From: Candidatus Wolfebacteria bacterium
GTDB taxonomy: Bacteria > Patescibacteriota > Minisyncoccia > Phycocordibacterales > EsbW-18
DNA length: 64,000 nucleotides
Assembly (NCBI GenBank): GCA_022616195.1
Contig: JAKEFG010000015.1
Span: 9,354 to 73,353, forward strand
Direction: 5' to 3'
How positions within the stretch are numbered: the first letter of the stretch is position 1; each line of letters starts with the position of its first letter. Of the stretch, positions 3,444 through 61,882 are shown piece after piece. A model generated the notes under the pieces. That model searched no databases, was not told the DNA's origin, and saw only the letters and a program-made list of their open reading frames with translations. The position numbers were made by a program, and so were the translations under genes.

Positions 3444-3554
3444 AGGCGTTTCTGAGCTTGCCTTCTGCCATTTCTCAAGAAATGGTAGGGGGTTGACGGA
3501 GATAATGGTCGGTGCTAGAATGAGTGGCTGTGAGACAAGTACTACCTCTAAAAC

Positions 3555-3583
3555 TTGCACTTATTGCTCATTTGTGATATAGT
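3555..3583 (+). promoter_or_regulatory. sigma70-type promoter TTGCAC-17nt-TGaTATAGT; -10 ends 6 nt before ATG 3590 (leaderless mRNA implied); a second TTGACG-17-TAGAAT lies at ~3493-3521
   Basis: hexamers and spacing read directly from sequence. Confidence 0.5.
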
Positions 3584-3589
3584 GGTGCC

Positions 3590-4642
3590 ATGGCTACGAA
3601 AGCAAAATCGGAGAAAACGGTGAAATTGAACTTTGTCCCGAAACAGGTTGTCAAGCGCCTGCTTGCCGTGCTTCCTGATCGTGCTGTTGATGTCCTGACC
3701 CGTCGGTATGGACTCGGAAAGGACACCGGTCGTATGACGCTTGAAGCCATCGGTCAGATTTACGATATTACCCGAGAGCGCGTCAGACAGATCGAGAATT
3801 ACGCGCTCGGGGCCATCCGCAAGTCCGAAAGCTATGAGAAGGAAAGTAAGGCCATTGATGAGCTCGAGCGGCTCATCAACGCGATGGGGGTGGTTGTCCC
3901 GGAAGAATTTTTTCTCGATGAGGTTGCAAAGGACAAGAGCACCCAGAACTACATACACTTTCTGTTGGTGCTCGGTCACCCGTTCACTCGTTTCAAGGAA
4001 GACGAACATTTTACGCATCGCTGGCATATTGATGCAGATGTCGCCCGTGGTGTTGAGGAGGCGCTGAAGAACTTGTACGCGTCACTGCCGGACGAAGAGC
4101 TTCTGTCGGAGCCGGAGCTCATGACGAGATTTCTGTCACATCTCAAAGAGCTCGCGGACCAGTACCGCGACGAAGAAATTCTGAAACGCTGGCTTTCGCT
4201 CTCGAAGAAAATTGCCAAAAGCCCTCTGGGCGATTGGGGACGTGTTGAGTCAACTGCGGTGAGCCCCCGCGGCATTCGCGACTATGCGTATCTGGTGATT
4301 CTTCGGCACGGCTCACCGCTCCACTTCACCGAAGTGGCGAAACAAATCAGCAAGCTATTTGACCGGCGGGCACACACTGCAACCGCGCACAACGAGCTCA
4401 TAAAGGACCAACGGTTCGTGCTTGTCGGACGCGGGCTCTATGCACTCTCGGAGTGGGGATACATGCAAGGTGTCGTCAAAGACGTTATTGTCGAGATTCT
4501 CAAACAGCACGGTCCGCTGACCAAAGAGGAAATCATTGACCGGGTGCTCAAGGAACGCTACGTGAAGGGAAATACTATCGCGGTCAATCTGCAGGATCCG
4601 ATGTTTAAGAGGACAAAGGACGGGAAGTACGCGCTCGCGTAG
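3590..4642 (+). CDS. sigma-70 region-4-like HTH protein with ~280-aa uncharacterised C-terminal extension (not a complete sigma factor)
   Basis: N-terminal LLAVLPDRAVDVLTRRYGLG..TLEAIGQIYDITRERVRQIENYALGAIRK matches sigma70 region 4 / FliA-type HTH; regions 2 and 3 absent; remainder helical with no known motif. Confidence 0.8.
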   Translation: MATKAKSEKTVKLNFVPKQVVKRLLAVLPDRAVDVLTRRYGLGKDTGRMTLEAIGQIYDITRERVRQIENYALGAIRKSESYEKESKAIDELERLINAMGVVVPEEFFLDEVAKDKSTQNYIHFLLVLGHPFTRFKEDEHFTHRWHIDADVARGVEEALKNLYASLPDEELLSEPELMTRFLSHLKELADQYRDEEILKRWLSLSKKIAKSPLGDWGRVESTAVSPRGIRDYAYLVILRHGSPLHFTEVAKQISKLFDRRAHTATAHNELIKDQRFVLVGRGLYALSEWGYMQGVVKDVIVEILKQHGPLTKEEIIDRVLKERYVKGNTIAVNLQDPMFKRTKDGKYALA

Positions 4643-4784
4643 CAGCTCGGAACACTCTCCTTCAAAATTCCAGATGCCTGCATGCGCCGCTCTTGAGCGG
4701 CTGTTGGGCTCTGTTGTTAACAGAAACATACAGCTGGTATACATTCGCGGCAGAAACCAGTGGTGTGTTGGGAAGGAGGTTCAG

Positions 4785-5117
4785 ATGGAGAAAGAGGAAA
4801 TCCTACATCAAGCAAATGAGATCGTCGGCGAGCACGGTCTTGTCGCCGAGCTTCTTGAAGGGGTTCTATCTGTAGGTGTTGGTGGGGATGAGCGAACCTA
4901 CTTACCCGTGCTTTGTCTGCGGGGTTCGTTTCCAGGCGACGCTTCGAGAGATTTCTACCAAGCTCACGAACGAGTTACCTATCAACAGGGTGACATTCGA
5001 GCTTGCTCGTGCGTCCCAGTAACAGCGGAGTCACGTGTCTCGGGAAGTTATCGTACGGCGGCTTCCCCGTTTCTTTTCCTGCGAACCACTTACTACCCAC
5101 TACAAACTACGGACTGA
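4785..5117 (+). pseudogene. guaA: relic of GMP synthase C-terminal (dimerisation) domain; ATP-PPase and GATase domains absent
   Basis: GVLSVGVGGDERTYLPVLCLRGSFPGDASRDFYQAHERVTY aligns with GuaA C-terminal consensus ([39 protein letters not shown]); sequence after this diverges; strong SD AGGAGG 5 nt upstream and TGgTATACA -10 at ~4735-4743. Confidence 0.45.
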
Positions 5118-5134
5118 AGTGGTATCATGACAGC

Positions 5135-6430
5135 ATGGACATTCTCCGTGAACTTTTTACCGGTCCGGGTCTTAACCTCACTCTGAGCGGTCTGCGCCTG
5201 CTTGCGCTTGCCGCGCCGGTGTGGCTGCCGCTTGTGCTCGGTATCGGTTTTTGGAAGGTGTGGGTAGGGTATCGGCGAGCGGCGTTTATTAGTAGCATGG
5301 AGTGGGTATTTCTCGAGATTCTATTACCCCAGGAAATCACCCGCTCGCCGCTCGCCATGGAACTGGTGCTCAATACGTTCCAACAGAGCTTTGGCGAGGC
5401 GCATGCATATGAAAAGTACTGGAAAGGTGGGGTGCGTCCGTGGACGTCGCTTGAGCTTGTATCTGTTGAAGGATCCGTGCATTTCATCATCCGGATACAT
5501 AAGGGAAGCCGTGCACTCATCGAGTCACAGATTTACGCAGAATATCCCGATGTCGAGATACACGAGGTTCCTGACTATATCCACGGCATTGATTTCGACA
5601 ATGAACTCGTGCAGTTATGGGGCGCTGAGTTTGCGCTTACCAAAGCCGACCCGTATCCTATCAAAACCTACGTCGACTACGGTCTCGATCGCGATCCGAA
5701 AGAAGAGCAAAAGATAGATCCGATTGCGCCGGTCATTGAATGGCTCGGCTCGCTCGGTGCCGGCGAGCAGGCATGGATTCAAATACTCGTTCGTCAGCAT
5801 AAGGACGAAACGCCTAAAATGGTCGGACCGTTCCGAAAACTTGTTGAGTTCAAGGCAGACAAGAAAAAGCTCTCCGAAAAAATCAAGTTCTTCCCGACGA
5901 CTGATGCATGGAAGGATGCAGTAAAGAAAGAAATCGAGAAAGTCGTGAAGGAGCGGAAAATCCAGAGTAAGGATGAGGAAAGCGGTCCCGTGAAACTCAC
6001 GCGCATGGAAGAAGAGGTCATCACGGCGCTCGAGCGGAGCATCACCAAGGCGGCATTCGATGTTGGTATTCGCGGTATGTATGTCGCTGAAAAGGACAAG
6101 TTCAATCCGGCGAACATCGGCGGGCTCATCGGCTCGTTCAAGCAGTACAGCACGAATCACCTCAATGGCTTCAAGCCGGGTAAGACCACCGGCGTGAAAG
6201 CGCCCTGGCAGGACCCGTTCGGCACGCGGGTGCCGAGGCGCAAGCGCATCATGCTTGATGCCTACAAGCGCCGGAGTTATTTTCATTCGCCGTACAAGCG
6301 CAAGCCTTTCATTCTGAACACGGAAGAGCTCGCGACGATGTATCACTTCCCGGGACGCGTTTCTACGACGCCGACATTCAAGCGTCTTGAGGCACGAAAG
6401 GCGGAGCCACCAGCACACTTGCCGATGTAA
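5135..6430 (+). CDS. conserved hypothetical protein, N-terminal membrane anchor (LRLLALAAPVWLPLVLGIGFW), charged helical middle, C-terminal FILNTEELATMYHFPG motif
   Basis: long ORF with good coding character; start chosen at ATG 5135 because the upstream part of the ORF overlaps the guaA relic in another frame. Confidence 0.7.
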   Translation: MDILRELFTGPGLNLTLSGLRLLALAAPVWLPLVLGIGFWKVWVGYRRAAFISSMEWVFLEILLPQEITRSPLAMELVLNTFQQSFGEAHAYEKYWKGGVRPWTSLELVSVEGSVHFIIRIHKGSRALIESQIYAEYPDVEIHEVPDYIHGIDFDNELVQLWGAEFALTKADPYPIKTYVDYGLDRDPKEEQKIDPIAPVIEWLGSLGAGEQAWIQILVRQHKDETPKMVGPFRKLVEFKADKKKLSEKIKFFPTTDAWKDAVKKEIEKVVKERKIQSKDEESGPVKLTRMEEEVITALERSITKAAFDVGIRGMYVAEKDKFNPANIGGLIGSFKQYSTNHLNGFKPGKTTGVKAPWQDPFGTRVPRRKRIMLDAYKRRSYFHSPYKRKPFILNTEELATMYHFPGRVSTTPTFKRLEARKAEPPAHLPM

Positions 6431-7473: not shown

Positions 7474-7501
7474 TTGACTCTCAATTGCGAGGGAGTATAC
7501 T
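7474..7501 (+). promoter_or_regulatory. sigma70-type promoter TTGACT-16nt-TATACT upstream of the 23S-5S locus
   Basis: consensus-like hexamers. Confidence 0.5.
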
Positions 7502-7650: not shown

Positions 7651-8330
7651 AGACGGAACGGAAAACACGATGGGCTGACTGGACGTTGACAAGCAAATAC
7701 ACGATAGAGAATCAAAGTCTCCGCTGACACGCGATGCGTACAGGCGGAGCAAGCAGGTAATTAAGTAAGGTATCAATGCTTGACATTGATACGCGGTTTT
7801 TAGATTTCCTAATAGGAGATCTGATAAGGGCGCACGGTGGATGCCTTGGCTCTAAACGGCGATGAAGGACGCGGCATGGCGGCGATATGCTTCGGGGAGG
7901 TGCCTAGCAACCTACGATCCGGAGATTTCCGAATGGGGAAACCCTGCGAGGTCAACCCTCGTGATCCTCTGATTCATCAGAGGAGGCACACCCGGGGAAG
8001 TGAAACATCTCAGTACCCGGAGGAACAGAGACTAATAAGTATTTCCTGAGTAGCGGCGAGCGAAATGGAAGAAGCCCAAACTCTGTGAAGCGAAAGCTAT
8101 GCAGAGGGTAGTAGGGTAACAACGTCATCTTTGATGAGGAGAGTTATAAAATGTTCTTCGTTAGCTGAATTCGTTGGAAAGCGAAGCCCGAGAGGGTAAT
8201 AGCCCCGTAATGCGAAAACGGAATGTCTCTCTTGTTGTTATTCCTGAGTACCCCGAGACATGAATAGCTCGGGGGAATCTGCCGGTACTAACCGGTAAGG
8301 CTAAATACGTTTAGAGACCGATAGTGAACC

Positions 8331-8361
<31 letters not shown>

Positions 8362-9636
8362 GGAGAGGGGGGTGAAATAGACCTGAAACCGTGCGTCTAC
8401 AAGGAGTCGAAGTGTCTTTTGGCACAACGGCGTGCCTATTGAAGAATGAGCCAACGAGTGTACGTGTACTGCTCGGCTAAGTCCTTTGTCGGACGAAGCC
8501 ACAGGGAAACCGAGTGTTAACAGCGCGAACTATAACTTTTTGCCGTGCGTGTGTTTCCTAGGACGCATGGTAAAGAGTTATCTGTAGTACATGTACGACC
8601 CGAAGCCGGGTGATCTACCCATGACCAGGGTGAACCTTACCGAAAGGTGGGGGGAGGCCCGAACCGATACGCGGTACAAAACGTTCGGATGAGTTGTGGG
8701 TCGGAGTGAAAAGCTAATCGAACCCGGTAATAGCTGGTTCTCTCCGAAATAGCTTTAGGGCTAGCGTTATGTGTTTCCCTCGGGGGTAGAGCACTGGAAG
8801 GAGTAGACAGGGCGAAAGCTCGCTTCTCCTATCAAACTCCGAATACCGAGGGTTAGAGCATAGCAGTTAGACTATGGGCGCTAAGGTCCATTGGTCAAAA
8901 GGGAAACAGCCCAGACCTCAAGCTAAGGTCCCTAAATCGACACTAAGTGCACGTAAGGAGGTGCAATTTCTCTGACACTGAGGAGGTTGGCTTAGAAGCA
9001 GCCATCCTTTAAAGAAAGCGTAACAGCTCACTCACTTAGAGATTGTGCGCCGCAAATAATCGGGGCTAAGTGTCGTACCGACGCTGAGGATTGTATCCCG
9101 TTTCGACGGGGTGCAGTGGTAGGAGAGCATTTCTATTGCTATGAAGCCCCTGTGTAAACCGGGGTGGAGCGATGGGAAGAGAGAATGTTGGCACAAGTAA
9201 CCGCAAGGCAGGTGCGATCCCTGCCCGCCGAAATCCCAAGGTTTCCTTGGCAATGTCAATCAGCCAAGGGTTAGTCGGTCCTAAGGAGATGGCGAAAGCC
9301 GTATCCGATGGACACACGGTTAATATTCCGTGACTTCCTGTTCATTCGATGGAGTAACGGAGGGTTGTACACGTTGCACATTATTGGATTTGTGTGCATG
9401 CTTTGAGGGAGTCAGTTAGGCAAATCCGGCTGACGCCACCCCGAGAAGTGTGCGGAATTCCGCTACGGCGGGAGAACAACGTGGAGCACGCTCCCGAGAA
9501 AAACTTCTAAGGTTCATGTCCAGGAAACCGTACCGCAAACCGACACAGGTGGGAAGGTCGAGAAGACCAAGGCGAACGGGTGAGAGATCCTCAAGGAACT
9601 CGGCAAAAAAGCGGCCGTAAGTTCGCAATAAGGCCT

Positions 9637-10028
9637 CCCAGCACTAGATTAAGTTCTTAAATGTAAACAGTAAGGAGAAAAAGCATGACAAATGAGCAGT
9701 ACCTAAAGGCAATCGGTGAAATGAAAAAAATAATACCGGCAGAAATTTTACCGGAGAGGATTGACACAAGCCGTAAATTCTCTGAAACTTCTGTAGAACA
9801 GAAGTTAAAACATTCTCTATATTTGTTAGAGAATGTCCCGACTTTTCTCGAGGTAGGAAAACGAGAAAAATCATCAAGACATTTAGCTTTTGCTCAGGCA
9901 ATCCTTTGGTCTTTGGACATGTTGGCAATCGACCAATTAATGGATTTCAACAGAAGATGATCATAATCGGGTGGTGATGATTATTTTTCACGCTCCCCGA
10001 ATTTTTAAGAATTTAATCTAGTGCTGGG
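9637..10028 (+). other. IVS-like insertion in a variable 23S helix (approx. E. coli helix 63 region), closed by a ~25-bp stem with one G-U; ~340 nt inserted
   Basis: cccagcactagattaagttcttaaa ... tttaagaatttaatctagtgctggg are reverse complements; flanking sequence continues into GACTGTTTACCAAAAACACAG (E. coli ~1770-1785). Confidence 0.65.
9685..9960 (+). CDS. 91-aa protein encoded inside the 23S IVS-like insertion (hypothetical, all-helical)
   Basis: ATG preceded by TAAGGAG 7 nt upstream; terminator-like hairpin plus T-run after the stop (~9955-9990). Confidence 0.55.
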   Translation: MTNEQYLKAIGEMKKIIPAEILPERIDTSRKFSETSVEQKLKHSLYLLENVPTFLEVGKREKSSRHLAFAQAILWSLDMLAIDQLMDFNRR

Positions 10029-10185
10029 CGCAGCGAAAGTATCCCTGGCGACTGTTTACCAAAAACACAGCTCCCTGCGAACTCGTAAGAGGATGTATAG
10101 GGGGTGACGCCTGACCAATGCCAGAAGGTCAAACGCGGAGGGTACATGTGACTTCGGTTATATGTGCTGGACTGCGTAAGCCCTG

Positions 10186-10224
<39 letters not shown>

Positions 10225-10883
10225 CAATTCCTTGTCTGGTAAGTTCAGACGTGCACGAATGGCGTAACGACTGGGGAACTGTCTCGAGGATTCGCCCGGT
10301 GAAAATGCAATGGGGGTGAAGATGCCCTCTACCTGCAGTTAGACGAAAAGACCCCAGGAGCTTTACTGTAACTTGATAGTGGGGGTACGTAGTATATGCG
10401 TAGCATAGGTGGGAGACGTTGAAGCGAAGGTCTCGGCTTTCGTAGAGTCGCCAGTGAAATACCACTCTTATATAGCGTGCTTTCTAACCTCGACGGCAAA
10501 AACGGCGGGGGACAGTATCTGGTAGGCAGTTTTAGTGGGGCGCTATCCTCCTAAAAAGTAACGGAGGAGCCTATTACGGTCAGCTAGGCGCGAATGGAAA
10601 CCGTGCCGATAGTGTAATGGCAGAAGCTGGCCTGACTGCAAGGGGTACATCCCGAGCAGGCGCGAAAGCGGAGCATAGTGAACCGAGAGTTCCCTTTAGA
10701 CGGGGCTCGAGATTAACGGATAAAAGTTACCCTGGGGATAACAGGCTGGTCCTGCCTAAGAGTCCATATCGACGGCAGGGTTCGGCACCTCGATGTCGGC
10801 TCACCGTATCCTGGCGCTGGAGAAGGTGCCAAGGGTTTGGCTGTTCGCCAATTAAAACGGTACGCGAGCTGGGTTCAGACCGT

Positions 10884-11360
10884 TCTGGGCATGAATCATA
10901 AGATATGAATCATGAATAGAGCAGTCTGAATCCGCTCATAACGACACAATCGTTTTTTCGTCTATGAAATAAGTCCCGATTTTGATGTATCAAAATCGAG
11001 GATCCCGACCAGAGCGTCGGGAATAGAATCAACCTAATCACGGCGGTCATGTGTAGTAATACGCATGTATCAAGCTGACCCCGATTTTGATGTATCAAAT
11101 CGAGGATCCCGACCAGAGCGTCGGGACTAATATCGGTGAATTTCTAGCTTCTAGGTAAGAAGAAGGAGGACACCGAGGGAATGGTTCGACTTTGCTCACC
11201 ACGAGCAAATAGAATTCGGCCCGTAGAGACTGAACGTCAGCGTTCCTTACTCATGTTTTGTGTTATACGCGACATGTGTTGGGAATATGCTACAGTCCGA
11301 TCCCGCCGGTAACGGCGGTGTGGCTAGACGCTAGGAGCTAGCGGCTAGTTGCTACAGTTG
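10884..11360 (+). mobile_element. ORF-less group-I-like intron inserted exactly after U2593 (E. coli numbering) of 23S
   Basis: exon reads GGGUUCAGACCGU | CGUGAGACAGG, matching E. coli G2581-U2593 | C2594-G2603; 5' exon ends in U and insert ends in G, as for group I introns; longest ORF <65 aa. Confidence 0.6.
10975..11126 (+). repeat. two direct copies (10975-11022 and 11080-11126) of a 48-bp element, each made of two hairpins (cgattttgat-gta-atcaaaatcg and tcccgac-cagagc-gtcggga), separated by 57 nt, inside the L2593 intron
   Basis: copies identical except one A in the A-run. Confidence 0.85.
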
Positions 11361-11423: not shown

Positions 11424-12251
11424 AAGTAATTGCTACTCTTCGGAGAGATCCGAAGTGACAATGTGGCTTATAACGGTGAAGCCTTCATATGATTACTGTC
11501 CGAGGATTGTGAATAGCTATTGGTCCAGCTATGGTATAATTCGCTTGCGGACCGTAATCCGCTGCAAGGTAATACCGTGGGAAGTCGATCTCAAACACAC
11601 ACAGCGTATATAGCGGGTTTTCTTGATGGTGACGGCAGTTTGATGCTGCAGATCAAAAAACGATCTGATACAAAACGAGGTATTCGTTTTATGGCAACAA
11701 TCTGTCTGTATCAAGATACTCGCCATGAGAGGCCGCTGTGCTGGATGCGTGAAGTTTTAGGCATTGGATATCTATCTCGACGCCGTGACGGCATTACAGA
11801 GTTACGTATCAATGGCTTTAGTCAGTGCAAAACAATTCTTGAACAACTAGTACCGTATATACGGTTTAAGAAGGTTCAAGTGAGTGCATTGCTCGAGGCA
11901 TGTACGGTACTGTGTACGACGCCGTTTTCAAAGCTCACGAAACAACAGCAGAAGTATTTGGTTGACCGTATTGTGATCATTCAACATGAAAACTATACAA
12001 CCAAGTCAAAAAAGCGTAGGGAAGAGCTGTATGCATGTTTGGATTTGACCCCGTAACGACTTGTTCATGTAGTTGCCACTACATGGCGGACTTGCTGATG
12101 TATTGAATCAGGAATGTATTCCTGACAATCTCAGTGGGTAACATGCCGCCACCCTCGTCCTCCATCTCATGGGGAACGGGTGAAGATATAGTCTATGCTC
12201 CTGGAAACAGGGGAGTAATCTTGTTTTTCAAAAGTGAAACAAGAGATACAT
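11424..12251 (+). mobile_element. 828-nt intron in the sarcin-ricin loop of 23S (after U2656), carrying a LAGLIDADG homing-endonuclease gene
   Basis: flanking exons join to GCUGCUCCUAGU|ACGAGAGGACCGGAGUGGAC, identical to the E. coli SRL sequence; 5' exon ends U and insert ends G. Confidence 0.75.
11520..12056 (+). CDS. single-motif LAGLIDADG homing endonuclease, I-CreI-like
   Basis: YIAGFLDGDGS motif; ~170 aa; GIGYLSRRRDG and LEQLVPYIRFKKVQVSALLEAC segments parallel I-CreI GVGYVRDRGS / FLTQLQPFLKLKQKQANLVLKII; ORF-track start is TTG 11520; in-frame GTG 11577 lies after a perfect TGgTATAAT (11531-11539). Confidence 0.85.
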   Translation: MVQLWYNSLADRNPLQGNTVGSRSQTHTAYIAGFLDGDGSLMLQIKKRSDTKRGIRFMATICLYQDTRHERPLCWMREVLGIGYLSRRRDGITELRINGFSQCKTILEQLVPYIRFKKVQVSALLEACTVLCTTPFSKLTKQQQKYLVDRIVIIQHENYTTKSKKRREELYACLDLTP

Positions 12252-12545: not shown

Positions 12546-12656
12546 TGTGTTGGTGGTTCGACGCTGTGGAGACACCCGTTCTCATTCCGAACACGGCAGT
12601 TAAGCACAGTAGTGGCGATGGTACTCGCAAGGGGAGAGTAGCTAGCCGCCAACACA
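12546..12656 (+). rRNA. rrf: 5S ribosomal RNA
   Basis: CCGUUCUCAUUCCGAACACGG..GUAGUGGCGAUGGUACUCGCAAGGGGAGAGUAGCUAGCCGCC; ends pair as helix I. Confidence 0.85.
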
Positions 12657-12675: not shown

Positions 12676-12703
12676 CCACCCGTGTGCGCACGGGCGTGTT
12701 TTG
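12676..12703 (+). terminator. hairpin cacccgtg-tgcg-cacgggcgtg followed by TTTTG, immediately after 5S
   Basis: GC-rich near-palindrome plus T-run. Confidence 0.55.
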
Positions 12704-12719
12704 CTACAATATAAGCACT

Positions 12720-15542: not shown

Positions 15543-15550
15543 GGGAAGTA

Positions 15551-17605
15551 TTATACCAACAGGTAGTCCAATGTCTTCCGGTCAACATTTGCCCCGGCCA
15601 CTCTAAACTTCACACGGTCCCCGAGCGTATAGGTTTTTTTGGTTTTCTCGCCCCTGATGCGGTAGTGCTTCTGGTCAAAGGCGTAGAAGTCGTTGGCAAG
15701 GTCGCGCATGCGGACGAGCCCTTCCGCGCCGCTTGTAAGCTCCTCCACGTAGATGCCCCACTCGGTAACGCCGGTGATAATACCCTCAAATATGTCACCG
15801 ACCCGTGCTGCCATGTACTCAACCTGTTTGTACTTAATGGACTCGCGCTCCGCTTTCTGCACCTCAATCTCTTTCTCCGAAAGCTCCTCTGCGACACTTT
15901 CGTAGTAAGCGAGCTCTGACGCCGGCACTTCTGCGCCGTGTAAGTGTTGCAACAGGAGGCGGTGTACGAGAAGATCCGGGTAGCGCCTGATGGGCGAGGT
16001 AAAATGCGTGTAGTGAGGGAACCCCAAACCGAAATGCCCGATGTTTTTTGTGGCGTAGGCGGCTTTTGCCATTGCACGGATGGCAGCTGTCTTGATGAGA
16101 TGTTCAATCGGCGTTCCCTCAATCTGTGCAAAGAGCGCGTTGATGTCTTTTGAGGAGATGTTCTTTTTTCGCTCGCCCCCGCCTGCCTTATGCGGCGAGC
16201 GGGCAGGGAAGCTGAAGCCGAGCCCGCGCACCAGGGCGGCAATTTCCGCAAGCTTTTCCTGGTCGGGGAGGTCATGGACGCGATAAATGAACCCTTTGTT
16301 GAGATTTTGCTTGCTGTGCGTGCGGTAGATGGTTTCAGCGACCTCCCGATTGGCAAGAAGCATCCACTCTTCAATGAGTTTGTGAGTGGCGAGCCGTTCC
16401 TTGCGGTAGATGCGAACAGGAGTTCCCTTCGCGTCAATCTCTACTTCTACCTCGTCCTGTTCAAAGTCAATCGCTCCTTTGGCGAAGCGACGTGTACGAA
16501 TATTCTCGGCAAGCGTGTTGAACACGGCGAGTTCACGTGCGAATTCACCACGCTGAGCATCAAGCACTTTTTGTGCCTCCTCGTAAGCAAAACGCCTGTC
16601 CGAGTTGATGATACCCTTACCGAACCAGCGCTCCTTGACGACACCCTCCTTGTCTATCAGGAATGTTGCCGAGAAGGTGAAACGCGGGACGCCAGGATTC
16701 AAACTGCACAGGTCGTTTGAGAGTTCTTCGGGGAGCATGGGTATTGTACGGTCGACAAGGTAGACCGAGAACCCCCGTTTTTCCGCCTCTTCATCAAGCG
16801 CGCTCCTGGTTTTCACATAGTGCGACACGTCGGCAATATGCACTCCCACCTCCCATAAGGTTTCGTTTCGTGCTCCGGATTTTGTGCTTCGGATTTCGCG
16901 AAGCGACAAGGCGTCATCAAAATCCTTCGCGTCATCCGGGTCTATAGTGCAGGTGGGGATTCCCCGAAAATCTCTTCGTTTGCCGGCACGGGTTTCGATA
17001 AATACTGGTTCGTTCGTTGGCGATAGCGAGGGGGGAAGGTCGGCAAGCTCATCCTTGCCTGCTTTCGCGATGCGCCCCGCTTCCGAGTCAACGGAGGATG
17101 GGAAACGAGTGTCTATATTGTAGGCAATGACGATGGAGGCAATTTCCACTTCGTGTTCCCCCTTTGCGCCGAGAATCTGCACAACCTTGCCGACGGGGGA
17201 CTTGGCCGGATCTTCCCAACGGACGAGCTCCACAACGATCTTTTGATTCGGTGAAAGACCGTCGGGGTTTTCGATCAGAATATCGGTATACATCTTGCTG
17301 TCGTCCGGGATGAGATACCAGATGTTCTTTTCCTGTTCTGCAATGCCGACGAAACGGGTCTTTGCGCGCCGTACAACACGGATCACTTCGCCGCGCGGCT
17401 CTCCGTCGCGGTGGCGGGGAAGCAGTGCCGCTTCCACCGTGTCGCCGTTGAGTGCTGTGTTCAAATGCTCTTGCTCCACGCGGACGTCTTCTTCAAAGTC
17501 GGGGTGTTGTATGAAACCAAGACCGCCGCGGGTGGTCGTAATCACTCCTTCAAAACGAAGTATTTTTTTTCTCTGTTTCTGTTTGGGACGTCTCCTTTGT
17601 GCCAT
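15551..17605 (-). CDS. rnr: ribonuclease R (RNB-family 3'-5' exoribonuclease with S1 domain)
   Basis: RNB catalytic region (IDPDDAKDFDDALS), C-terminal S1; start taken at MAQRRRPKQ (ATG 17605); the longer ORF-track start overlaps rpsP. Confidence 0.92.
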   Translation of the reverse strand: MAQRRRPKQKQRKKILRFEGVITTTRGGLGFIQHPDFEEDVRVEQEHLNTALNGDTVEAALLPRHRDGEPRGEVIRVVRRAKTRFVGIAEQEKNIWYLIPDDSKMYTDILIENPDGLSPNQKIVVELVRWEDPAKSPVGKVVQILGAKGEHEVEIASIVIAYNIDTRFPSSVDSEAGRIAKAGKDELADLPPSLSPTNEPVFIETRAGKRRDFRGIPTCTIDPDDAKDFDDALSLREIRSTKSGARNETLWEVGVHIADVSHYVKTRSALDEEAEKRGFSVYLVDRTIPMLPEELSNDLCSLNPGVPRFTFSATFLIDKEGVVKERWFGKGIINSDRRFAYEEAQKVLDAQRGEFARELAVFNTLAENIRTRRFAKGAIDFEQDEVEVEIDAKGTPVRIYRKERLATHKLIEEWMLLANREVAETIYRTHSKQNLNKGFIYRVHDLPDQEKLAEIAALVRGLGFSFPARSPHKAGGGERKKNISSKDINALFAQIEGTPIEHLIKTAAIRAMAKAAYATKNIGHFGLGFPHYTHFTSPIRRYPDLLVHRLLLQHLHGAEVPASELAYYESVAEELSEKEIEVQKAERESIKYKQVEYMAARVGDIFEGIITGVTEWGIYVEELTSGAEGLVRMRDLANDFYAFDQKHYRIRGEKTKKTYTLGDRVKFRVAGANVDRKTLDYLLV

Positions 17606-17627
17606 AACTCGGATTGTAGCAGACAGA

Positions 17628-17656
17628 TTGACGCAGGACACCTCTCCTGCTATTAT
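17628..17656 (+). promoter_or_regulatory. TTGACG-17nt-TATTAT promoter; -10 ends 10 nt before the rpsP ATG
   Basis: consensus-like hexamers in the 61-nt divergent rnr/rpsP intergenic region. Confidence 0.5.
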
Positions 17657-17666
17657 TACGCTTCGT

Positions 17667-18768: not shown

Positions 18769-18794
18769 GACTTTTACAATGACGGTACAATCAT

Positions 18795-19535: not shown

Positions 19536-19564
19536 TTGACACCCAACGCACTTTCTATTAGAAT
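19536..19564 (+). promoter_or_regulatory. TTGACA-17nt-TAGAAT promoter, ~160-nt leader before rpoB
   Basis: perfect -35 and near-consensus -10. Confidence 0.55.
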
Positions 19565-28301: not shown

Positions 28302-29579
28302 ATGGCGGTACATAAGAAAAAAAAGAATACGGGGACAGCAAAACGCACGGCGAGACGTGCGATATCGCGACGTGCCACAGGGTCGCGGAAGACCAAGGCA
28401 AAAGGCACACGTTCACGCGCTTCTGTGCGGAAAGGTCGTGTTCGCACACAACCGAAGGTGAAAACCGTCGTAGCAAAGAAGACGCCGGAGAAAGCGGCGA
28501 AGCAAACCAAGCGCGAGCGGGAGTTCTGGAAGCGTGCGGAGAAGCTCTTTGTCAAAGGACGCGAGCGCGGTTTTATTACCTATGACGAAATTCTTAAGGA
28601 GTTTCCGAGAGTTGAGGATGACGTGCTCTTTCTGGAACAACTCTACGATTCACTCGGTGCTGAAACTATTGACGTACTTGAAAGTGGGGGGCTTCTTGAT
28701 CTTGGTGACACGGGGCGGGAGAAAAATGTTTATGAGCGCGGGGCGAGCGGGTACGATTCCATACAAATGTACCTCCGCGAAATCGGTCAGTATGAGCTTA
28801 TTACTGCTTCCAAGGAGCGCGAACTTGCCAAGCGTATTGAAGAAGGGGATGAAGAAGCAAAAAACCTCCTCGCGCGTGCCAACCTGCGACTCGTTGTCTC
28901 CATTGCGAAGAAATATGCGAACCGAAGCCCGAACCTCACGCTTCTCGACCTCATCCAAGAAGGAAACATCGGCCTCTTCAAGGCAGTGGAGAAGTTTGAC
29001 TGGCGCAAAGGGTATAAGTTCTCGACGTATGCGACCTGGTGGATTCGTCAGGCAGTGACGCGCGCGATTGCCGACCAGTCACGGACTATCCGCATTCCGG
29101 TGCACATGGTGGAAACGATTGCCAAATACAAGCGCATCTCACGGCGTATGGCGCAGGACCTCGGGCGCGACCCCATGCCGGAGGAAATTGCGCTTGAGAT
29201 GGGGTTGGATGTTGAAAAAATCCACCACATTGAAAAAATAAACCAGAACGTCGTCCCGCTAGAAACGCCGGTGGGCAAAGACGAGGACGGGAGCTCCACA
29301 CTCGGTGACTTTATTGCCGACGATACCATAGAATCGCCGGATACCGACGCGTCGCGCCGTATTTTGACGACGCAGATTTCCGAAGTGCTGAATGAACTCT
29401 CGCCTAAGGAGCGAAAAATTCTTGAGATGCGCGCGGGGCTTATGGACGGCATCCCGCACACGCTTGAAGAAGTGGGGAAGGAGTTTGGTGTCACCCGCGA
29501 GCGCATCCGGCAGATTGAGGCGAAGGCACATGAAAAAATCCGCCAGCACCAACGGGCTTCAAAACTGAGGAATTATTAA
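28302..29579 (+). CDS. rpoD: RNA polymerase primary sigma factor (sigma-70) with lysine/arginine-rich N-terminal extension
   Basis: region 2.4 [27 protein letters not shown]; region 4 HTH ([23 protein letters not shown]). Confidence 0.95.
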
Positions 29580-29725: not shown

Positions 29726-30088
29726 TCAGCGGTTCGGAGAAGGGGACTCCAGTGCCTTGAGTACCAGAATCCACCTTCCCATGGTGGTGTGGTGGGAGAA
29801 GGTGACATTCAGCACCCGCACGCGACTTCCGGGTTCCGGCCTGTAGCCGCTCACAGCGGTGAACAGGTCGCCGTCCGAGATACGCCGGACGATGACGAAC
29901 GAGAAACCAGTGCCCGGGATCTCGTCGCTGAACCCGACGACCTCGAAATCCTCTTGCCACTCGCTGTGGACTTCGGGTGCCGGAAGCCCCGCCTGCCCCG
30001 ACGCCTTGATGTCGTGCTCGACACGCACCAAGACGAGTATCATCAGGGCCGTCACCATCGCCTTGGCCAAAACGCTGAAGATTTTCAT
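29726..30088 (-). CDS. small secreted/anchored hypothetical protein (signal-peptide-like N-terminus)
   Basis: MKIFSVLAKAMVTALMILVLV; GGAGG 5 nt upstream of ATG; G+C-rich relative to neighbours. Confidence 0.6.
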   Translation of the reverse strand: MKIFSVLAKAMVTALMILVLVRVEHDIKASGQAGLPAPEVHSEWQEDFEVVGFSDEIPGTGFSFVIVRRISDGDLFTAVSGYRPEPGSRVRVLNVTFSHHTTMGRWILVLKALESPSPNR

Positions 30089-30254
30089 CTCTTCCTCCTT
30101 GTCGTTATAGTTCTCACTTCTGCTGTAGACGCACCAGTATGCACCTGCAGCAGAAGTGAAAGTATGCCACCAATCTTTTAAAGGACTTTGACGACATTAT
30201 AGCAGATAGAAATACTACCGTCAAGTTTTTTAGGATGTGCTAAAATAGCCTTTA

Positions 30255-37512: not shown

Positions 37513-37974
37513 ATGAAAAATACAGTTATTTGGATTGTTGTCATACTCGTTATTGTTCTTGCCATCTTTTGGTTCATGAATCGCCCTGACGGCGAAGTAC
37601 CAACTGAAGAACAGGAGCAAGAACAAGAGGAGGAAGTGCAATCAGTCACCGTCTCTCTTAGTGAGCAAAATGACTCCGGCATGTCAGGGGTTGCTATACT
37701 TACTGAAGTAGAAGGAGGCACGCATGTTGCGCTTAATCTTACCGGGGCACCTGAAGGTGTAGCACAACCGGCACACATTCACACGGGTTCGTGTGCTGCT
37801 ATCGGAGAAGTAGTGTATCCGCTTGAATCCCCAGTCAATGGCGTTTCCGAAACACTGCTCAATACTTCACTGGACAGCTTGCTCATAAGCCAGCTTCCAC
37901 TTGCGCTCAATGTCCACAAATCTGCCGAAGAGGTAGATGTGTATGTTGCATGTGGGGACTTAGATTTAGGCTAA
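37513..37974 (+). CDS. membrane-anchored protein with CHRD-like domain (AHIHTGSC motif)
   Basis: N-terminal TM, acidic EQEQEQEEE linker, then HIH-containing beta domain; assignment tentative. Confidence 0.5.
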   Translation: MKNTVIWIVVILVIVLAIFWFMNRPDGEVPTEEQEQEQEEEVQSVTVSLSEQNDSGMSGVAILTEVEGGTHVALNLTGAPEGVAQPAHIHTGSCAAIGEVVYPLESPVNGVSETLLNTSLDSLLISQLPLALNVHKSAEEVDVYVACGDLDLG

Positions 37975-38094: not shown

Positions 38095-38305
38095 CTTCTT
38101 GGGGGGTATATCCACACACTAGGTTTCCTGTGGTGTGAACACAAGCAAAGCTCGACAGGAAACATATTGACATCTGTTTGTTCCCGGGGTATCATCTTCC
38201 CAGACCATCCTTACGGGGTTAACCCCGCCGTGCTCGTCTCGGGCCGTGTGGGCCTCGGGATAATCGCACCTCACAACGGATTGTGAAACCAAGGAGGTTC
38301 TTCCG

Positions 38306-38986: not shown

Positions 38987-40210
38987 ATGTCTACACGGAA
39001 GAACATATTTCTTTGGGCTTTATACGACTTCGCAAACTCAGTAGTTTCAATTGTATTTTTTCTTTATTTCTCACAGTGGATTGTTATTGACCAAGGTGTT
39101 GCAGACATCTGGTTTAATCTTGTTTTTACCATAGCCGCAGTGCTTTTGTTACTCTCTGTTCCTACCACGGGGGCATTGTTAGATAAATACTGGAGACGTA
39201 TTACTGGTCTGCGCTATACCACGTTTGGTACCGTCATTTCGTATGGACTATGCGGTGTTCTCGCTATTTTGGGATACGGTGTTCCAGCCCTCATATTGTT
39301 TGGAGTCGGTTGGTATATCTATCTTCTTTCTTTCACGTTTTATACTCCTCTTCTCAATGACATAGCGTCCCCCGAAAGACGTGGCCGTGTTTCGGGTTAC
39401 GGTATAGCGGCGAATTACTTAGGACAAATAGCCGGCTTGATACTTGTTCTACCGTTTGCCACGGGGAGTGTTAACTTATTCGGGGGTTCTCTTAGGGCCG
39501 AGACGTTATTGCCTTCCGTGGTTGTATTTTTGTTGCTTGCTTTACCGATGCTTATTTTCTTTAAAGAACCACACAAAGAGCAAAAATCATTTTCGTTGTC
39601 AGTAGAAATCAAGCAATCATTGGTGAAGACCAAGGAACTTTTTATGGTCTCTGGCGTTCTCGCTTTTTTCCTAGCGTATTTTTTCTTTAACGACGCTATT
39701 TTGACCGCGGCTAACAACTTCTCCATTTTCCTTGAACAGGTGTGGAAGGTTCCTGATACTACCAAAACGTATATACTTCTCGGGATCCTAATTACTTCTG
39801 CGATTGGTGGGCTTGTATCTGGTCCGATTGCAGACAGATTTGGTCACAAAAAGACGCTTATTGTTATACTCTCTGGGTTGGTTGTCATTTTGCCGTTTAT
39901 TGCTTGGGTAAGTAACTTTACCCTGTTTGTCGTCGCCACTGCGCTAATGGGGCTGTGGTTTGGCTCAAACTGGACAGTGTCTCGTTCATTGATGAGTCAC
40001 CTTGCTCCGACAAGTGGGCACAACCTCACGTTTGGATATTTTGGTTTAGTAGAACGAGCATCGTCTTTAGTGGGCCCTGTCGTATGGGGACTCATAGCCA
40101 CAAATCTTGTGTCTATAGGGCCTACGAGGTATAGAATAGCAGCAACAATCGTAACGCTGTTCATTCTCTTGGGTCTGGTTGCGATGAGGAAGGTCCCTAA
40201 GGGAGCTTGA
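38987..40210 (+). CDS. MFS transporter, UMF1/Atg22-like family
   Basis: 12 TM; N-terminal LWALYDFANS motif characteristic of UMF1. Confidence 0.85.
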   Translation: MSTRKNIFLWALYDFANSVVSIVFFLYFSQWIVIDQGVADIWFNLVFTIAAVLLLLSVPTTGALLDKYWRRITGLRYTTFGTVISYGLCGVLAILGYGVPALILFGVGWYIYLLSFTFYTPLLNDIASPERRGRVSGYGIAANYLGQIAGLILVLPFATGSVNLFGGSLRAETLLPSVVVFLLLALPMLIFFKEPHKEQKSFSLSVEIKQSLVKTKELFMVSGVLAFFLAYFFFNDAILTAANNFSIFLEQVWKVPDTTKTYILLGILITSAIGGLVSGPIADRFGHKKTLIVILSGLVVILPFIAWVSNFTLFVVATALMGLWFGSNWTVSRSLMSHLAPTSGHNLTFGYFGLVERASSLVGPVVWGLIATNLVSIGPTRYRIAATIVTLFILLGLVAMRKVPKGA

Positions 40211-41533: not shown

Positions 41534-41708
41534 CGTGCGCGGCGGAATGTCGTTGTTCTGCATTTTCTCGGAGTGCTGGCCGGTAACCCCTTCAGGAGAA
41601 ACGGCGGTGATGCCAAGTGGGCATCACAAAGAACTCTTGTTTTTGAACGGTATGATATACTGGACTGGTATCGGTCGGTATTACTACACTAACTACACAT
41701 ACTATATT

Positions 41709-41965: not shown

Positions 41966-42337
41966 ATGAATGAACACAACGCTTCAGATATGAAACAAGA
42001 GGAGTCCCCGCAAGGAGCCGCTCCTCAGCAGAACACGGGTGGAAACAGAACACTTATGAGTGTTCTGGCCTACATCGGACCGCTTGTTATTATTTCGTAT
42101 CTGTTCGCGAAGGATAATCCGTTTGTAAAATTTCACATCAAGCAGGGGCTGGTACTCTTCGTCATTGAAATTGTCGCGTGGTTTCTCGGTATGATGGTGT
42201 GGGTGCTCTGGCCGCTCGTCAACATCGTGAATCTCATCACCCTCATACTTTCCATTGTCGGCATTGTGAACGTGGTGAAAGGGAGAGAGAAAATGCTCCC
42301 GCTCGTGGGTTCGCTCGCCAAGCACTTCCCGATATAA
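41966..42337 (+). CDS. DUF4870-family membrane protein
   Basis: LAYIGPLVIISYLFAKDNPFVKFHIKQGLVL motif, 2-3 TM. Confidence 0.6.
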   Translation: MNEHNASDMKQEESPQGAAPQQNTGGNRTLMSVLAYIGPLVIISYLFAKDNPFVKFHIKQGLVLFVIEIVAWFLGMMVWVLWPLVNIVNLITLILSIVGIVNVVKGREKMLPLVGSLAKHFPI

Positions 42338-42349
42338 TCCGCCTACGGC

Positions 42350-47371: not shown

Positions 47372-47443
47372 GATACATTCGGTTGTCTGAAACATTCTAA
47401 TATTCTATAGAATATTAGAATGTTTCAGCGTGGTTACGATGTC

Positions 47444-48118: not shown

Positions 48119-48145
48119 TTGTCAACACACTCGTTGTGGTATAAC
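48119..48145 (+). promoter_or_regulatory. TTGTCA-15nt-TGgTATAAC promoter; -10 ends 6 nt before the mnmA ATG (leaderless)
   Basis: extended -10 with TG. Confidence 0.5.
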
Positions 48146-49240: not shown

Positions 49241-49331
49241 TGAGTAGTGTGTAGCGGAGACGTTTGTTTTTTGCTATACTACACACTACTTACTACCTGC
49301 CTGCGCAGGCTGGTTTACCACACACTAAAAC

Positions 49332-50644: not shown

Positions 50645-50658
50645 GGTAGAATCAGGGT

Positions 50659-52108: not shown

Positions 52109-52178
52109 CTTCTACCTGCTATATTGGAACCTGGAGTTAGGCGGTCTTTCCACACAACCAACTTCTATGGAGGCAGGT

Positions 52179-52649: not shown

Positions 52650-52719
52650 CGCGTGAACGGTCGCCGGCAGTTCTACTGCATTTCGGCGACCCTCTTTTTC
52701 TTTGTGCTATACTGGCGCG

Positions 52720-54385: not shown

Positions 54386-54476
54386 TACACCCGCGGACAC
54401 CCAGGGTTATTTTAACCACAGTGTTATTTGCTATACTGTTTTATGCGGCTAGTGCCTAGTCGCTAGACGTTACATC

Positions 54477-55504: not shown

Positions 55505-55595
55505 TCATATGTGAGAATCCACCCGTAATCCCCATGCTTCGGGCTGTTTTTGACTGGAAACAATCCCTAAAATGTGCTATACTTAATACACGAAT

Positions 55596-60870: not shown

Positions 60871-60883
60871 GGTATACTGTTCT

Positions 60884-61738: not shown

Positions 61739-61882
61739 AGGAAGAGTTCAGTGGATTCCGACTAATCCACAGCATCTTGATAGTATTGTATGATCCTGTG
61801 CTATCCTTAAACGTGTAGTCGGCACGCCGCATCGCTGGCGTCATTAATCAAAATAGTAGTAAGTTTCTATAATATAAATAGT

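Follow-up and report, generated by a model that had tools for sequence, protein, structure and literature searches.

Extended -10 promoters next to start codons in a Paceibacteria lineage: evidence for probable leaderless and near-leaderless mRNAs

Described systems and the locus

Genomes rich in leaderless mRNAs are typified by Mycobacterium, Streptomyces, Corynebacterium and Deinococcus (PMC6028130, PMC3898074, PMC4633059), and in group C of GeneMarkS-2 a Pribnow box lies 6-8 nucleotides (nt) from the starts and 25-50% of the operons are leaderless (PMC6028130). Here we describe a similar arrangement in a 64,000-nt stretch of DNA from a Candidatus Wolfebacteria bacterium (contig JAKEFG010000015.1), which is referred to below as the window. 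The element in question is TGnTAnnnT, an extended -10 promoter element that recurs a few nucleotides upstream of start codons, for example at 3575-3583 in front of the ATG at 3590. With a probability of about 0.8, extended -10 promoters abut the start codons of many genes in this Paceibacteria lineage and would give rise to many leaderless or near-leaderless mRNAs that have no Shine-Dalgarno sequence.

As in group C, the -10 box is 6-8 nt from the ATG of the first genes of operons, and roughly a quarter to a third of the transcription units have this layout. However, the other genes in group C carry Shine-Dalgarno sequences, whereas here these are almost absent (four of ~50 genes in the window and 66 of 1099 genes in relatives). 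Group C also differs in that the -10 described here is strongly extended (TGn), the -35 is weak and the spacing has a marked tail at 9-14 nt. The predicted arrangement also resembles the leaderless transcriptomes that have been mapped by experiment in mycobacteria and Deinococcus.

Two other comparisons involve individual promoters. The extended -10 promoters that sigma-70 reads in E. coli and Gram-positive bacteria likewise have a TG one base upstream of TAnnnT, a weak or absent -35, and a His and a Glu in sigma region 3.0. The leaderless lambda PRM/cI mRNA starts at the A of the ATG and is translated without a leader (PMC10491246); in the window such a start is predicted. Both of these, however, concern single genes in organisms that rely on Shine-Dalgarno sequences, whereas the present arrangement is genome-wide and shared by a lineage. 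The group B motif of Bacteroidota is similar in being an A+T-rich element near starts in a Shine-Dalgarno-poor genome, but it lacks the TG and precedes all genes, including operon-internal ones, where the element described here is depleted.

A case from the same taxonomic group is that of the Parcubacteria, in a subgroup of which Tsurumaki et al. (2022) described loss of the anti-Shine-Dalgarno sequence and left the mode of translation start open; only 48% of the Parcubacteria had a detected anti-Shine-Dalgarno motif (PMC9297842). The window comes from this group. GyrA has at most 70% identity to proteins of Kaiser-, Taylor-, Yonath- and Nomurabacteria-type metagenome-assembled genomes (MAGs), among the matches listed, and Pfam scans found domains typical of the Candidate Phyla Radiation (CPR), namely DUF5671, DUF5667 and four T4SS-pilin paralogues; together these place the organism among the Parcubacteria, class Paceibacteria. 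The scarcity of Shine-Dalgarno sequences and, in a relative described below, a 16S tail without CCUCC fit the loss described by Tsurumaki et al., but the four perfect Shine-Dalgarno sites of the window suggest that its own genome may still have a working anti-Shine-Dalgarno. In the open-access literature we found no paper in which leaderless mRNAs are connected with CPR, Patescibacteria or Parcubacteria. Thus, the arrangement is known in Actinobacteria and Deinococcus; the lineage is new for it, and its kind is not surprising.

These observations have some practical consequences. Gene callers that rely on Shine-Dalgarno sequences will misplace starts in such genomes, whereas the rule TGnTAnnnT, 6-9 nt, ATG provides both the promoter and the start for a fifth to a third of the genes; it already corrects the longest-open-reading-frame starts at 5135, 12720, 17605, 48152, 52720 and 60884 in the window. 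A load of leaderless mRNAs, together with leadered genes that lack Shine-Dalgarno sequences, is a plausible and testable answer to how translation initiates in Parcubacteria without an anti-Shine-Dalgarno, and adds to the picture of reduced and unusual CPR ribosomes. Any attempt to express genes of these uncultivated bacteria, or to express genes inside them, has to use this arrangement of promoter and start.

Enrichment and spacing of the extended -10

The focal promoter and its gene are as follows:
3555-3583, + strand: focal promoter, with a -35-like TTGCAC (3555-3560), a 17-nt spacer and the extended -10 TGATATAGT (3575-3583).
3590-4642, + strand: gene behind this promoter, 350 amino acids (aa), with a sigma-70 region 4 domain and a HARE-HTH domain (Pfam).
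3493-3521, + strand: second, fuller promoter of the same gene (TTGACG, 17 nt, TGcTAGAAT), 54 nt upstream of the focal promoter.

The focal hexamer, TATAGT (3578-3583), has a TG upstream and is followed by six bases (GGTGCC) and the ATG at 3590, the A of which is the predicted transcription start. Given the second promoter, the gene may be transcribed both without a leader and with one of ~60 nt. A look-up of the exact protein sequence matched no record. The metagenome scan found 184 relatives of the protein, with 38-64% identity among the best 80 of the 184; the sigma-70 region 4/HARE-HTH fusion is a conserved Parcubacteria protein with a role that is possibly associated with RNA polymerase.

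The original prediction held that an extended -10 recurs just upstream of starts, and this is the case. In the window there are 15 matches to TGNTATANT, compared with 2.85 expected, and none of 100 dinucleotide-preserving shuffles had as many as 15. Thirteen of the 15 are on the + strand, which is the strand of most genes, and 12-13 of the 15 lie upstream of genes in the sense orientation. The reverse count leads to the same result: TGNTANNNT followed at 4-14 nt by an ATG that opens a reading frame (ORF) of at least 150 codons occurs 10 times, compared with 1.99 expected (p = 3e-5).

Because choosing the start that follows a -10 box would be circular, starts were also called without the motif: in every long ORF that overlapped no other, the first ATG was taken as the start, and TANNNT was counted at every distance. 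In the window the hexamer lies exactly 6 nt upstream in eight of 45 genes, compared with ~0.7 per position. The first set of relatives consists of 80 related Paceibacteria loci (1.29 Mb, 1099 genes), in which TANNNT occurs 126 times at 6 nt, 77 times at 7 nt and 86 times at 9 nt against ~28 per position; the maximum, at 6 nt, is a single base wide. For TGNTANNNT the corresponding counts are 43, 20 and 21 against ~3. The second, independent set consists of 62 non-redundant metagenome loci (285 genes) and again has TANNNT at 6 nt 33 times compared with ~8. Lack of enrichment at starts over background had been named in advance as a finding that would speak against the prediction; the motif is enriched in the window, in the 80 loci and in the 62 loci.

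A hexamer 6 nt upstream of an ATG is in frame with it, and so a TAA or TAG within TANNNT could simply be the stop codon that delimits the ORF. This explanation, or more generally chance or a by-product of composition, does receive some support from TA[AG]NNT, which rises with a 3-nt period at 0, 6 and 9 nt, as in-frame stops predict. However, hexamers that cannot contain a stop keep the 6-nt peak (TA[CT]NNT, 80 versus 17; TATA[ACG]T, 45 versus ~3), so that stops explain part of the 0/6/9 periodicity and not the peak itself. With the shuffles and the replication in two independent locus sets, this rival is effectively rejected, and its probability is close to nil.

A secondary TANNNT peak occurs at 0-1 nt upstream of starts. 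It does not come from true starts two codons downstream, since in-frame ATGs are not enriched at codons 2-5; it reflects a T at -1 and an A+T-rich context. Indeed, in the window and the 80 loci T is favored at -1 of the ATG and the preceding five to six bases are A+T-rich, even in leadered genes.

The lack of enrichment of in-frame ATGs also bears on the possibility that the start codons were assigned incorrectly, in which case the true starts would be downstream and the leaders behind the -10 boxes of the ordinary kind. In favor of this, the first-ATG rule is a rough one, and the starts of the hypothetical proteins at 5135, 12720 and 15542 rest on ORF structure only. However, if starts were misassigned, the first ATG should have no sharp peak exactly 6 nt upstream of it, and some N-termini can be compared with those of solved homologues. 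Residue 1 of LeuS aligns with residue 1 of Thermus LeuS (MERYNHKEIEKRWQ versus MEKYNPHAIEAKWQ), residue 1 of S16 aligns with residue 1 of the solved Thermus and E. coli S16 proteins, and the MnmA start is within 3-4 residues of its solved homologues. These alignments fix the three N-termini, and we consider misassignment very unlikely.

The sites in the window at which the element, or a hexamer resembling it, lies near a start codon are the following:
835-843, + strand: leuS promoter, TGGTATAGT, 14 nt before ATG 858; predicted 5' untranslated region (UTR) of ~7 nt.
5120-5128, + strand: promoter of a 431-aa hypothetical protein, TGGTATCAT, 6 nt before ATG 5135.
12702-12710, + strand: promoter of a 254-aa hypothetical protein, TGCTACAAT, 9 nt before ATG 12720.
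15550-15558, - strand: promoter of a small ORF (~77 aa) upstream of a bPH_2 gene, TGGTATAAT, 7 nt before ATG 15542.
17613-17621, - strand: RNase R promoter, TGCTACAAT, 7 nt before ATG 17605.
17628-17656, + strand: rpsP promoter (TTGACG, 17 nt, TGcTATTAT), 10 nt before ATG 17667.
18786-18791: trmD, TACAAT, 3 nt before the ATG; a second TACAAT (18775-18780) is 14 nt away.
30238-30246, + strand: promoter of a PD-(D/E)XK nuclease gene, TGCTAAAAT, 8 nt before ATG 30255.
41700-41705, + strand: small DUF1059 gene, TACTAT, 6 nt before its second ATG (41712).
42333-42338: HD gene, TATAAT, spacing 11 nt, overlapping the stop codon of the upstream gene.
47402-47407, - strand: fmt, TAGAAT, 6 nt before ATG 47395-47393.
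48137-48145, + strand: mnmA, TGGTATAAC, 6 nt before ATG 48152; the hexamer is imperfect, with a final C instead of the conserved T.
49272-49280, + strand: leadered gene without a Shine-Dalgarno sequence, TGCTATACT, 51 nt before ATG 49332.
50647-50652, + strand: DUF7282 gene, TAGAAT, 6 nt before ATG 50659.
52705-52713, + strand: promoter of a PD-(D/E)XK nuclease gene, TGCTATACT, 6 nt before ATG 52720.
54429-54437, + strand: MBL-fold gene, TGCTATACT, 39 nt before ATG 54477; leadered, no Shine-Dalgarno sequence.
55575-55583, + strand: gyrA promoter, TGCTATACT, 12 nt before ATG 55596.
60873-60878, + strand: T4SS-pilin paralogue, TATACT, 5 nt before ATG 60884.
61868-61873, + strand: T4SS-pilin paralogue, TATAAT, 9 nt before ATG 61883.

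Most of the sites in the original prediction agree with these to the base, i.e., those of leuS (14), the gene behind 12702 (9), rpsP (10), the gene behind 52705 (6), gyrA (12) and the pilin gene behind 61868 (9). A few need correction. The trmD hexamer, the HD hexamer and the nonamer upstream of the MBL gene are where they were placed, but their distances are 3, 11 and 39 nt rather than 4, 12 and 40, and the element does lie 6 nt before the mnmA ATG but without the conserved final T. Since the nearer trmD hexamer is only 3 nt off, it is too close for transcription to start at the ATG. The sites at 5120-5128, 15558-15550 (- strand), 17621-17613 (- strand) and 30238-30246, and those of fmt, the DUF7282 gene and the DUF1059 gene, were not on the earlier list.

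Among 49 curated genes of the window, 11 have a good hexamer at 5-9 nt (the genes at 3590, 5135, 12720, 15542, 30255 and 52720, RNase R, fmt, the DUF7282 gene and two pilin genes), and another four have a weaker one (mnmA, FecR, ftsW and a third pilin gene); the DUF1059 gene is a fifth weaker case outside the 49. Six more have the hexamer at 10-14 nt (leuS, rpsP, gyrA, HD, DUF4870 and trmD). About 10 are operon-internal, with a gap of at most 17 nt and no Shine-Dalgarno sequence, several are leadered without one, and four have a canonical one. By spacing, therefore, about 11-16 of ~50 genes would be of the leaderless type, with six at 10-14 nt, and most of the remaining genes are leadered or operon-internal, also without a Shine-Dalgarno sequence.

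Several of the sites have features of their own. RNase R and rpsP are divergent, and their extended -10s (TGCTACAAT on the - strand and TGCTATTAT on the + strand) are back-to-back in the 61-nt intergenic region (17606-17666); consequently, their -35 regions must overlap. Five nt past the MBL nonamer, within 54438-54476, is a 7-codon ORF (ATG CGG CTA GTG CCT AGT CGC TAG) that ends 10 nt before the MBL ATG and could be a leaderless mini-ORF feeding re-initiation. Two perfect TGNTATANT nonamers are located in the sense orientation inside coding regions, at 37692-37700 (a CHRD-domain gene) and 39862-39870 (an MFS transporter); they may be internal promoters or chance matches.

Promoter element or ribosome signal

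An A+T-rich hexamer near starts could also be a translation signal on leadered mRNAs, either a non-Shine-Dalgarno ribosome-binding site or an unstructured A/U-rich stretch like that of the Bacteroidota group B genomes. Some of the data fit such a signal. The plain hexamer TANNNT shows a moderate excess at every distance between 0 and 17 nt, and operon-internal genes are no exception (of 267 such genes, 23 have it at 6 nt); the T at -1 and the A+T-rich context are found even in leadered genes, as noted above; and Shine-Dalgarno sequences are rare, so that many leadered genes need another signal.

The extended element behaves differently. At 6-9 nt it precedes 13.5% of the divergently transcribed genes, 7% of the same-strand genes with a gap of more than 80 nt, and 3.4% of the genes that are at most 25 nt from the upstream gene. 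It is thus depleted ~4-fold before operon-internal genes, whereas a site for the ribosome would be expected in front of every gene. The peak, which is a single base wide, lies at the canonical distance from a -10 to a transcription start. The TG upstream of the hexamer is a contact for RNA polymerase, and we know of no role for it in ribosome binding.

The start codon itself is informative. Where a codon 6 nt past TGNTANNNT begins an ORF of 100 codons or more, it is ATG in 50 cases, GTG in two and TTG in four. Leaderless translation requires a 5'-terminal AUG, and this near exclusivity of ATG fits initiation at the 5' terminus.

The same nonamer is also found farther from start codons. It lies 22-51 nt upstream of other genes (MBL, hyp153, CHRD and VanY), and full promoters of the form TTGACx, 16-17 nt, TAnnnT precede the 23S rRNA (7474-7501) and rpoB (19536-19564), both with long leaders; therefore, the element serves as a normal promoter elsewhere. 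On the basis of the extended TG, the operon-internal depletion, the exclusivity of ATG and the nonamer's presence in leadered and full promoters, we conclude that the recurrent TGnTAnnnT is an extended -10 promoter and not a ribosome site. The translation signal is accordingly an improbable alternative.

A sequence logo gives the consensus of a weak TT at about -35, t.TGnTAtaaT, five bases, T and ATG, in which a pyrimidine occupies -1 and the ATG begins at +1. In the numbering of the logo itself, positions -3 and -2 are t and g, the TG that extended -10 promoters have at -15/-14. The -35 region carries no more than 0.2 bit of information, and a scan for two-hexamer promoters was not enriched over shuffles (19 versus 17.6). 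The classical -35/-10 pair was therefore rejected as the signature, which is the extended -10 and not the -35. For example, gyrA has no -35 at 16-18 nt. Some promoters do have TTGnnn at 17 nt, namely those of rpsP, the gene at 30088 and the focal site.

The sigma factor expected to read such an element is encoded in the window:
28302-29579, + strand: RpoD, the housekeeping sigma factor, with the region 3.0 motif PVHMVETI kept.

This motif aligns with PVHMVETI of the solved SigA chain 8x6f_E. In E. coli sigma-70, the TG of an extended -10 is recognized by the region 3.0 residues H455 and E458.

The sequences show that the motif is enriched, has a fixed geometry, depends on operon position, is followed almost only by ATG and is conserved in relatives; where exactly transcription starts, and how ribosomes are recruited, we infer as follows. 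Ordinary sigma-70-type RNA polymerase would read the TGnTAnnnT elements. Bacterial RNA polymerase starts ~7 nt past the hexamer, and six bases usually separate the hexamer from +1. Genes with the hexamer at 6 nt would therefore be transcribed from the A of the ATG itself; a spacing of 7-9 nt would add 1-3 bases, and one of 10-14 nt would leave a 5' UTR of ~3-8 nt, too short for a Shine-Dalgarno sequence. The ribosome and initiator tRNA would presumably bind the 5'-terminal AUG directly, without Shine-Dalgarno pairing. Both fmt and def are present in the window, and therefore formyl-methionine initiation is retained.

The original prediction of widespread leaderless or near-leaderless mRNAs is thus supported, at the level of promoter geometry, by the start calls made without the motif, the stop control, the two sets of relatives, the operon contrast, the exclusivity of ATG and the fixed N-termini. 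The genes spaced 9-14 nt are predicted to have 5' UTRs of ~3-8 nt and not of zero.

Several points weigh against extended -10 promoters that abut start codons and yield leaderless mRNAs. Leaderlessness is deduced from promoter geometry with the usual distance from -10 to start assumed, and leaders would be very short for genes in the lesser maximum at 9 nt and in the tail that reaches 14 nt. Within 20 nt of starts, plain TANNNT is more frequent in general, for which stop codons and an A+T-rich context are partly responsible; an extended -10 also precedes ~3% of the operon-internal genes; and trmD, mnmA and HD are weak examples. We found no transcription-start or 5'-end data for Parcubacteria in the literature, where the sole CPR start-site set that we found is that of the Saccharibacterium Nanosynbacter lyticus, with starts inferred from RNA-seq coverage. 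Finally, the closest orthologues of the focal gene have ~35-nt leaders with no Shine-Dalgarno sequence, and its leaderless layout is therefore not conserved in them.

Comparison of single genes among relatives puts this last point in context. In more distant orthologues of the focal gene, TTGACA, 17 nt and TGnT(T/A)AAAT precede the ATG at a distance of 6-10 nt. Most of the 80 loci have retained a strong extended -10 before gyrA, and none of the gyrA orthologues has a Shine-Dalgarno sequence, but leaders differ in length between clades: ~28 loci, with proteins starting MAKK..., have 9-14 nt, and another group (MPKKT...) has 31-42 nt. The clade-specific gyrA leaders and the mixed orthologues of the focal gene indicate that the lineage-wide constant is Shine-Dalgarno-independent initiation behind an extended -10, and that strict leaderlessness of a given gene shifts over evolutionary time.

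Shine-Dalgarno sites, G+C content and the 16S tail

The four genes of the window with a canonical Shine-Dalgarno sequence are:
4773-4779, + strand: AAGGAGG before ATG 4785 of a 110-aa ORF; gene G+C 0.53.
30196-30204, - strand: promoter of a small gene (TTGACG, 17 nt, TGcTATAAT), with a leader of ~100 nt, AAGGAGG at 30100-30094 and ATG 30088; G+C 0.61.
38291-38297, + strand: AAGGAGG, 8 nt before GTG 38306 of a secreted 173-aa protein; G+C 0.66.
52117-52173, + strand: promoter TGCTATATT (52117-52125) and GGAGG (52169-52173), 5 nt before ATG 52179; G+C 0.61.

Three of the four have a G+C content of 0.61-0.66 compared with 0.527 for the window, and two of the four are located behind an extended -10 of the native type (30204-30196 and 52117-52125). 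It had been proposed that genes in G+C-rich segments carry GGAGG sites. This holds for the genes at 30088 (- strand), 38306 and 52179, but it fails as a rule: the gene at 4785 has an ordinary G+C content, and the largest G+C-rich block of the window (32.9-35.9 kb, cyclase and FecR genes) has no Shine-Dalgarno sequence.

In the 80 loci, 66 of the 1099 genes have a Shine-Dalgarno 5-mer at 4-10 nt, and 4-mers at 5-8 nt number 26-45 per position compared with a background of 11. This use is spread thinly across the loci, and so we rejected the idea that it is confined to a few relatives. The 66 genes average 4.5 percentage points more G+C than their own loci (p ~1e-12), and the same 5-mers at 24-30 nt, used as a control, have no G+C shift. 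The link between G+C and Shine-Dalgarno sequences is therefore genuine and holds generally, but no simple rule follows from it: the 32.9-35.9 kb block is an exception, and most genes without a Shine-Dalgarno sequence are not leaderless.

Two translation-initiation regimes in one genome had also been proposed. Leaderless-type and Shine-Dalgarno-led genes are both seen, but this division is incomplete. Since many leadered and operon-internal genes have no Shine-Dalgarno sequence (MBL, hyp153, CHRD, VanY, DEAD, rpoB, rpoC, rpoD and yceG), there are at least three initiation classes and not two.

Many of the Shine-Dalgarno-led genes of the relatives are syntenic. They belong to a minus-strand, fast-evolving cluster of membrane-protein genes 6.5-9.5 kb downstream of the gyrA start, just past the pilin genes, and the genes of this cluster supply much of the Shine-Dalgarno use of the lineage. 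The cluster is a conserved G+C-rich island at ~16.5-19.5 kb of the 80 loci, where the mean over 29 loci is 3 to 4.5 points higher. Its counterpart in the window is at 62.6-64 kb, where G+C jumps by 9 to 10 points at 62.6-63.6 kb after the A+T-rich pilin genes. Pfam found almost nothing, other than weak SPFH matches, in ten Shine-Dalgarno-led cluster proteins of relatives, and the Shine-Dalgarno-led proteins of the window and the ORF at 62.7-64 kb had no matches to genes of the related loci.

We searched 160 related loci, by pattern and blastn, for the 3' end of 16S rRNA and found one, in a Taylorbacteria MAG (locus L062). Its tail, GGAAUAUUUCAAAUUU, is without CCUCC and reads ...GCUGCUCGUGGAAUAUUUCAAAUUU after helix 45; CUCCUU occurs ~27 nt beyond the canonical anti-Shine-Dalgarno place, inside a hairpin. 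This 16S (1-1185) has an insertion of ~860 nt after ~1390 (E. coli numbering), with a LAGLIDADG-type ORF at 552-986. The insertion misled the Rfam placement of the 3' end, which was read directly from the sequence instead. Upstream of the G+C-rich cluster genes of L062 (three genes, and thus anecdotal) there are only degenerate purine tracts.

The window genome may still have a working anti-Shine-Dalgarno that pairs with the mRNAs of a few genes, as is suggested by its four perfect sites. A broader scenario, which we offer tentatively and regard as possible but doubtful, is that the Paceibacteria clade largely abandoned Shine-Dalgarno-dependent initiation and that some members even lost the anti-Shine-Dalgarno tail. 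The default would then be a terminal or near-terminal AUG behind an extended -10, together with Shine-Dalgarno-less initiation on leadered and coupled genes, and canonical sites would survive mainly on G+C-rich genes, including the cluster beside the T4SS-pilin genes. If this is true, two gene populations with different translation signals coexist, and the cause could be recurrent gene import or a separately regulated expression class.

A separate feature of the L062 cluster is a pair of near-perfect 16-bp palindromes, GGCCATAATTATGGCC and GGCCACAATTATGGCT, at ~10790-10805 and 12162-12177 on the - strand. They lie ~30 nt upstream of the ATGs of two paralogous G+C-rich cluster genes and look like an operator or a hairpin.

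As for the rest of the window, Pfam scans of ~60 ORFs indicate a compact bacterial genome fragment with housekeeping genes (leuS, ftsW, RNase R, rpsP, trmD, rpoB/C, dnaG, rpoD, fmt, def, mnmA and gyrA) and an overall G+C content of 52.7%. Rfam found a 23S rRNA (7814-10965), a 5S rRNA (12549-12654) and one tRNA, and no 16S gene in the window. The 16S gene is unlinked to this 23S, as yceG ends 400 nt upstream of the 23S. At 3152 nt, compared with 2925 nt for the model, the 23S has ~230 nt of insertions; an ORF at 9685-9960 lies within it, with TAAGGAG upstream, and a LAGLIDADG endonuclease ORF (11520-12056) occupies part of the 1.6-kb gap between the 23S and the 5S.

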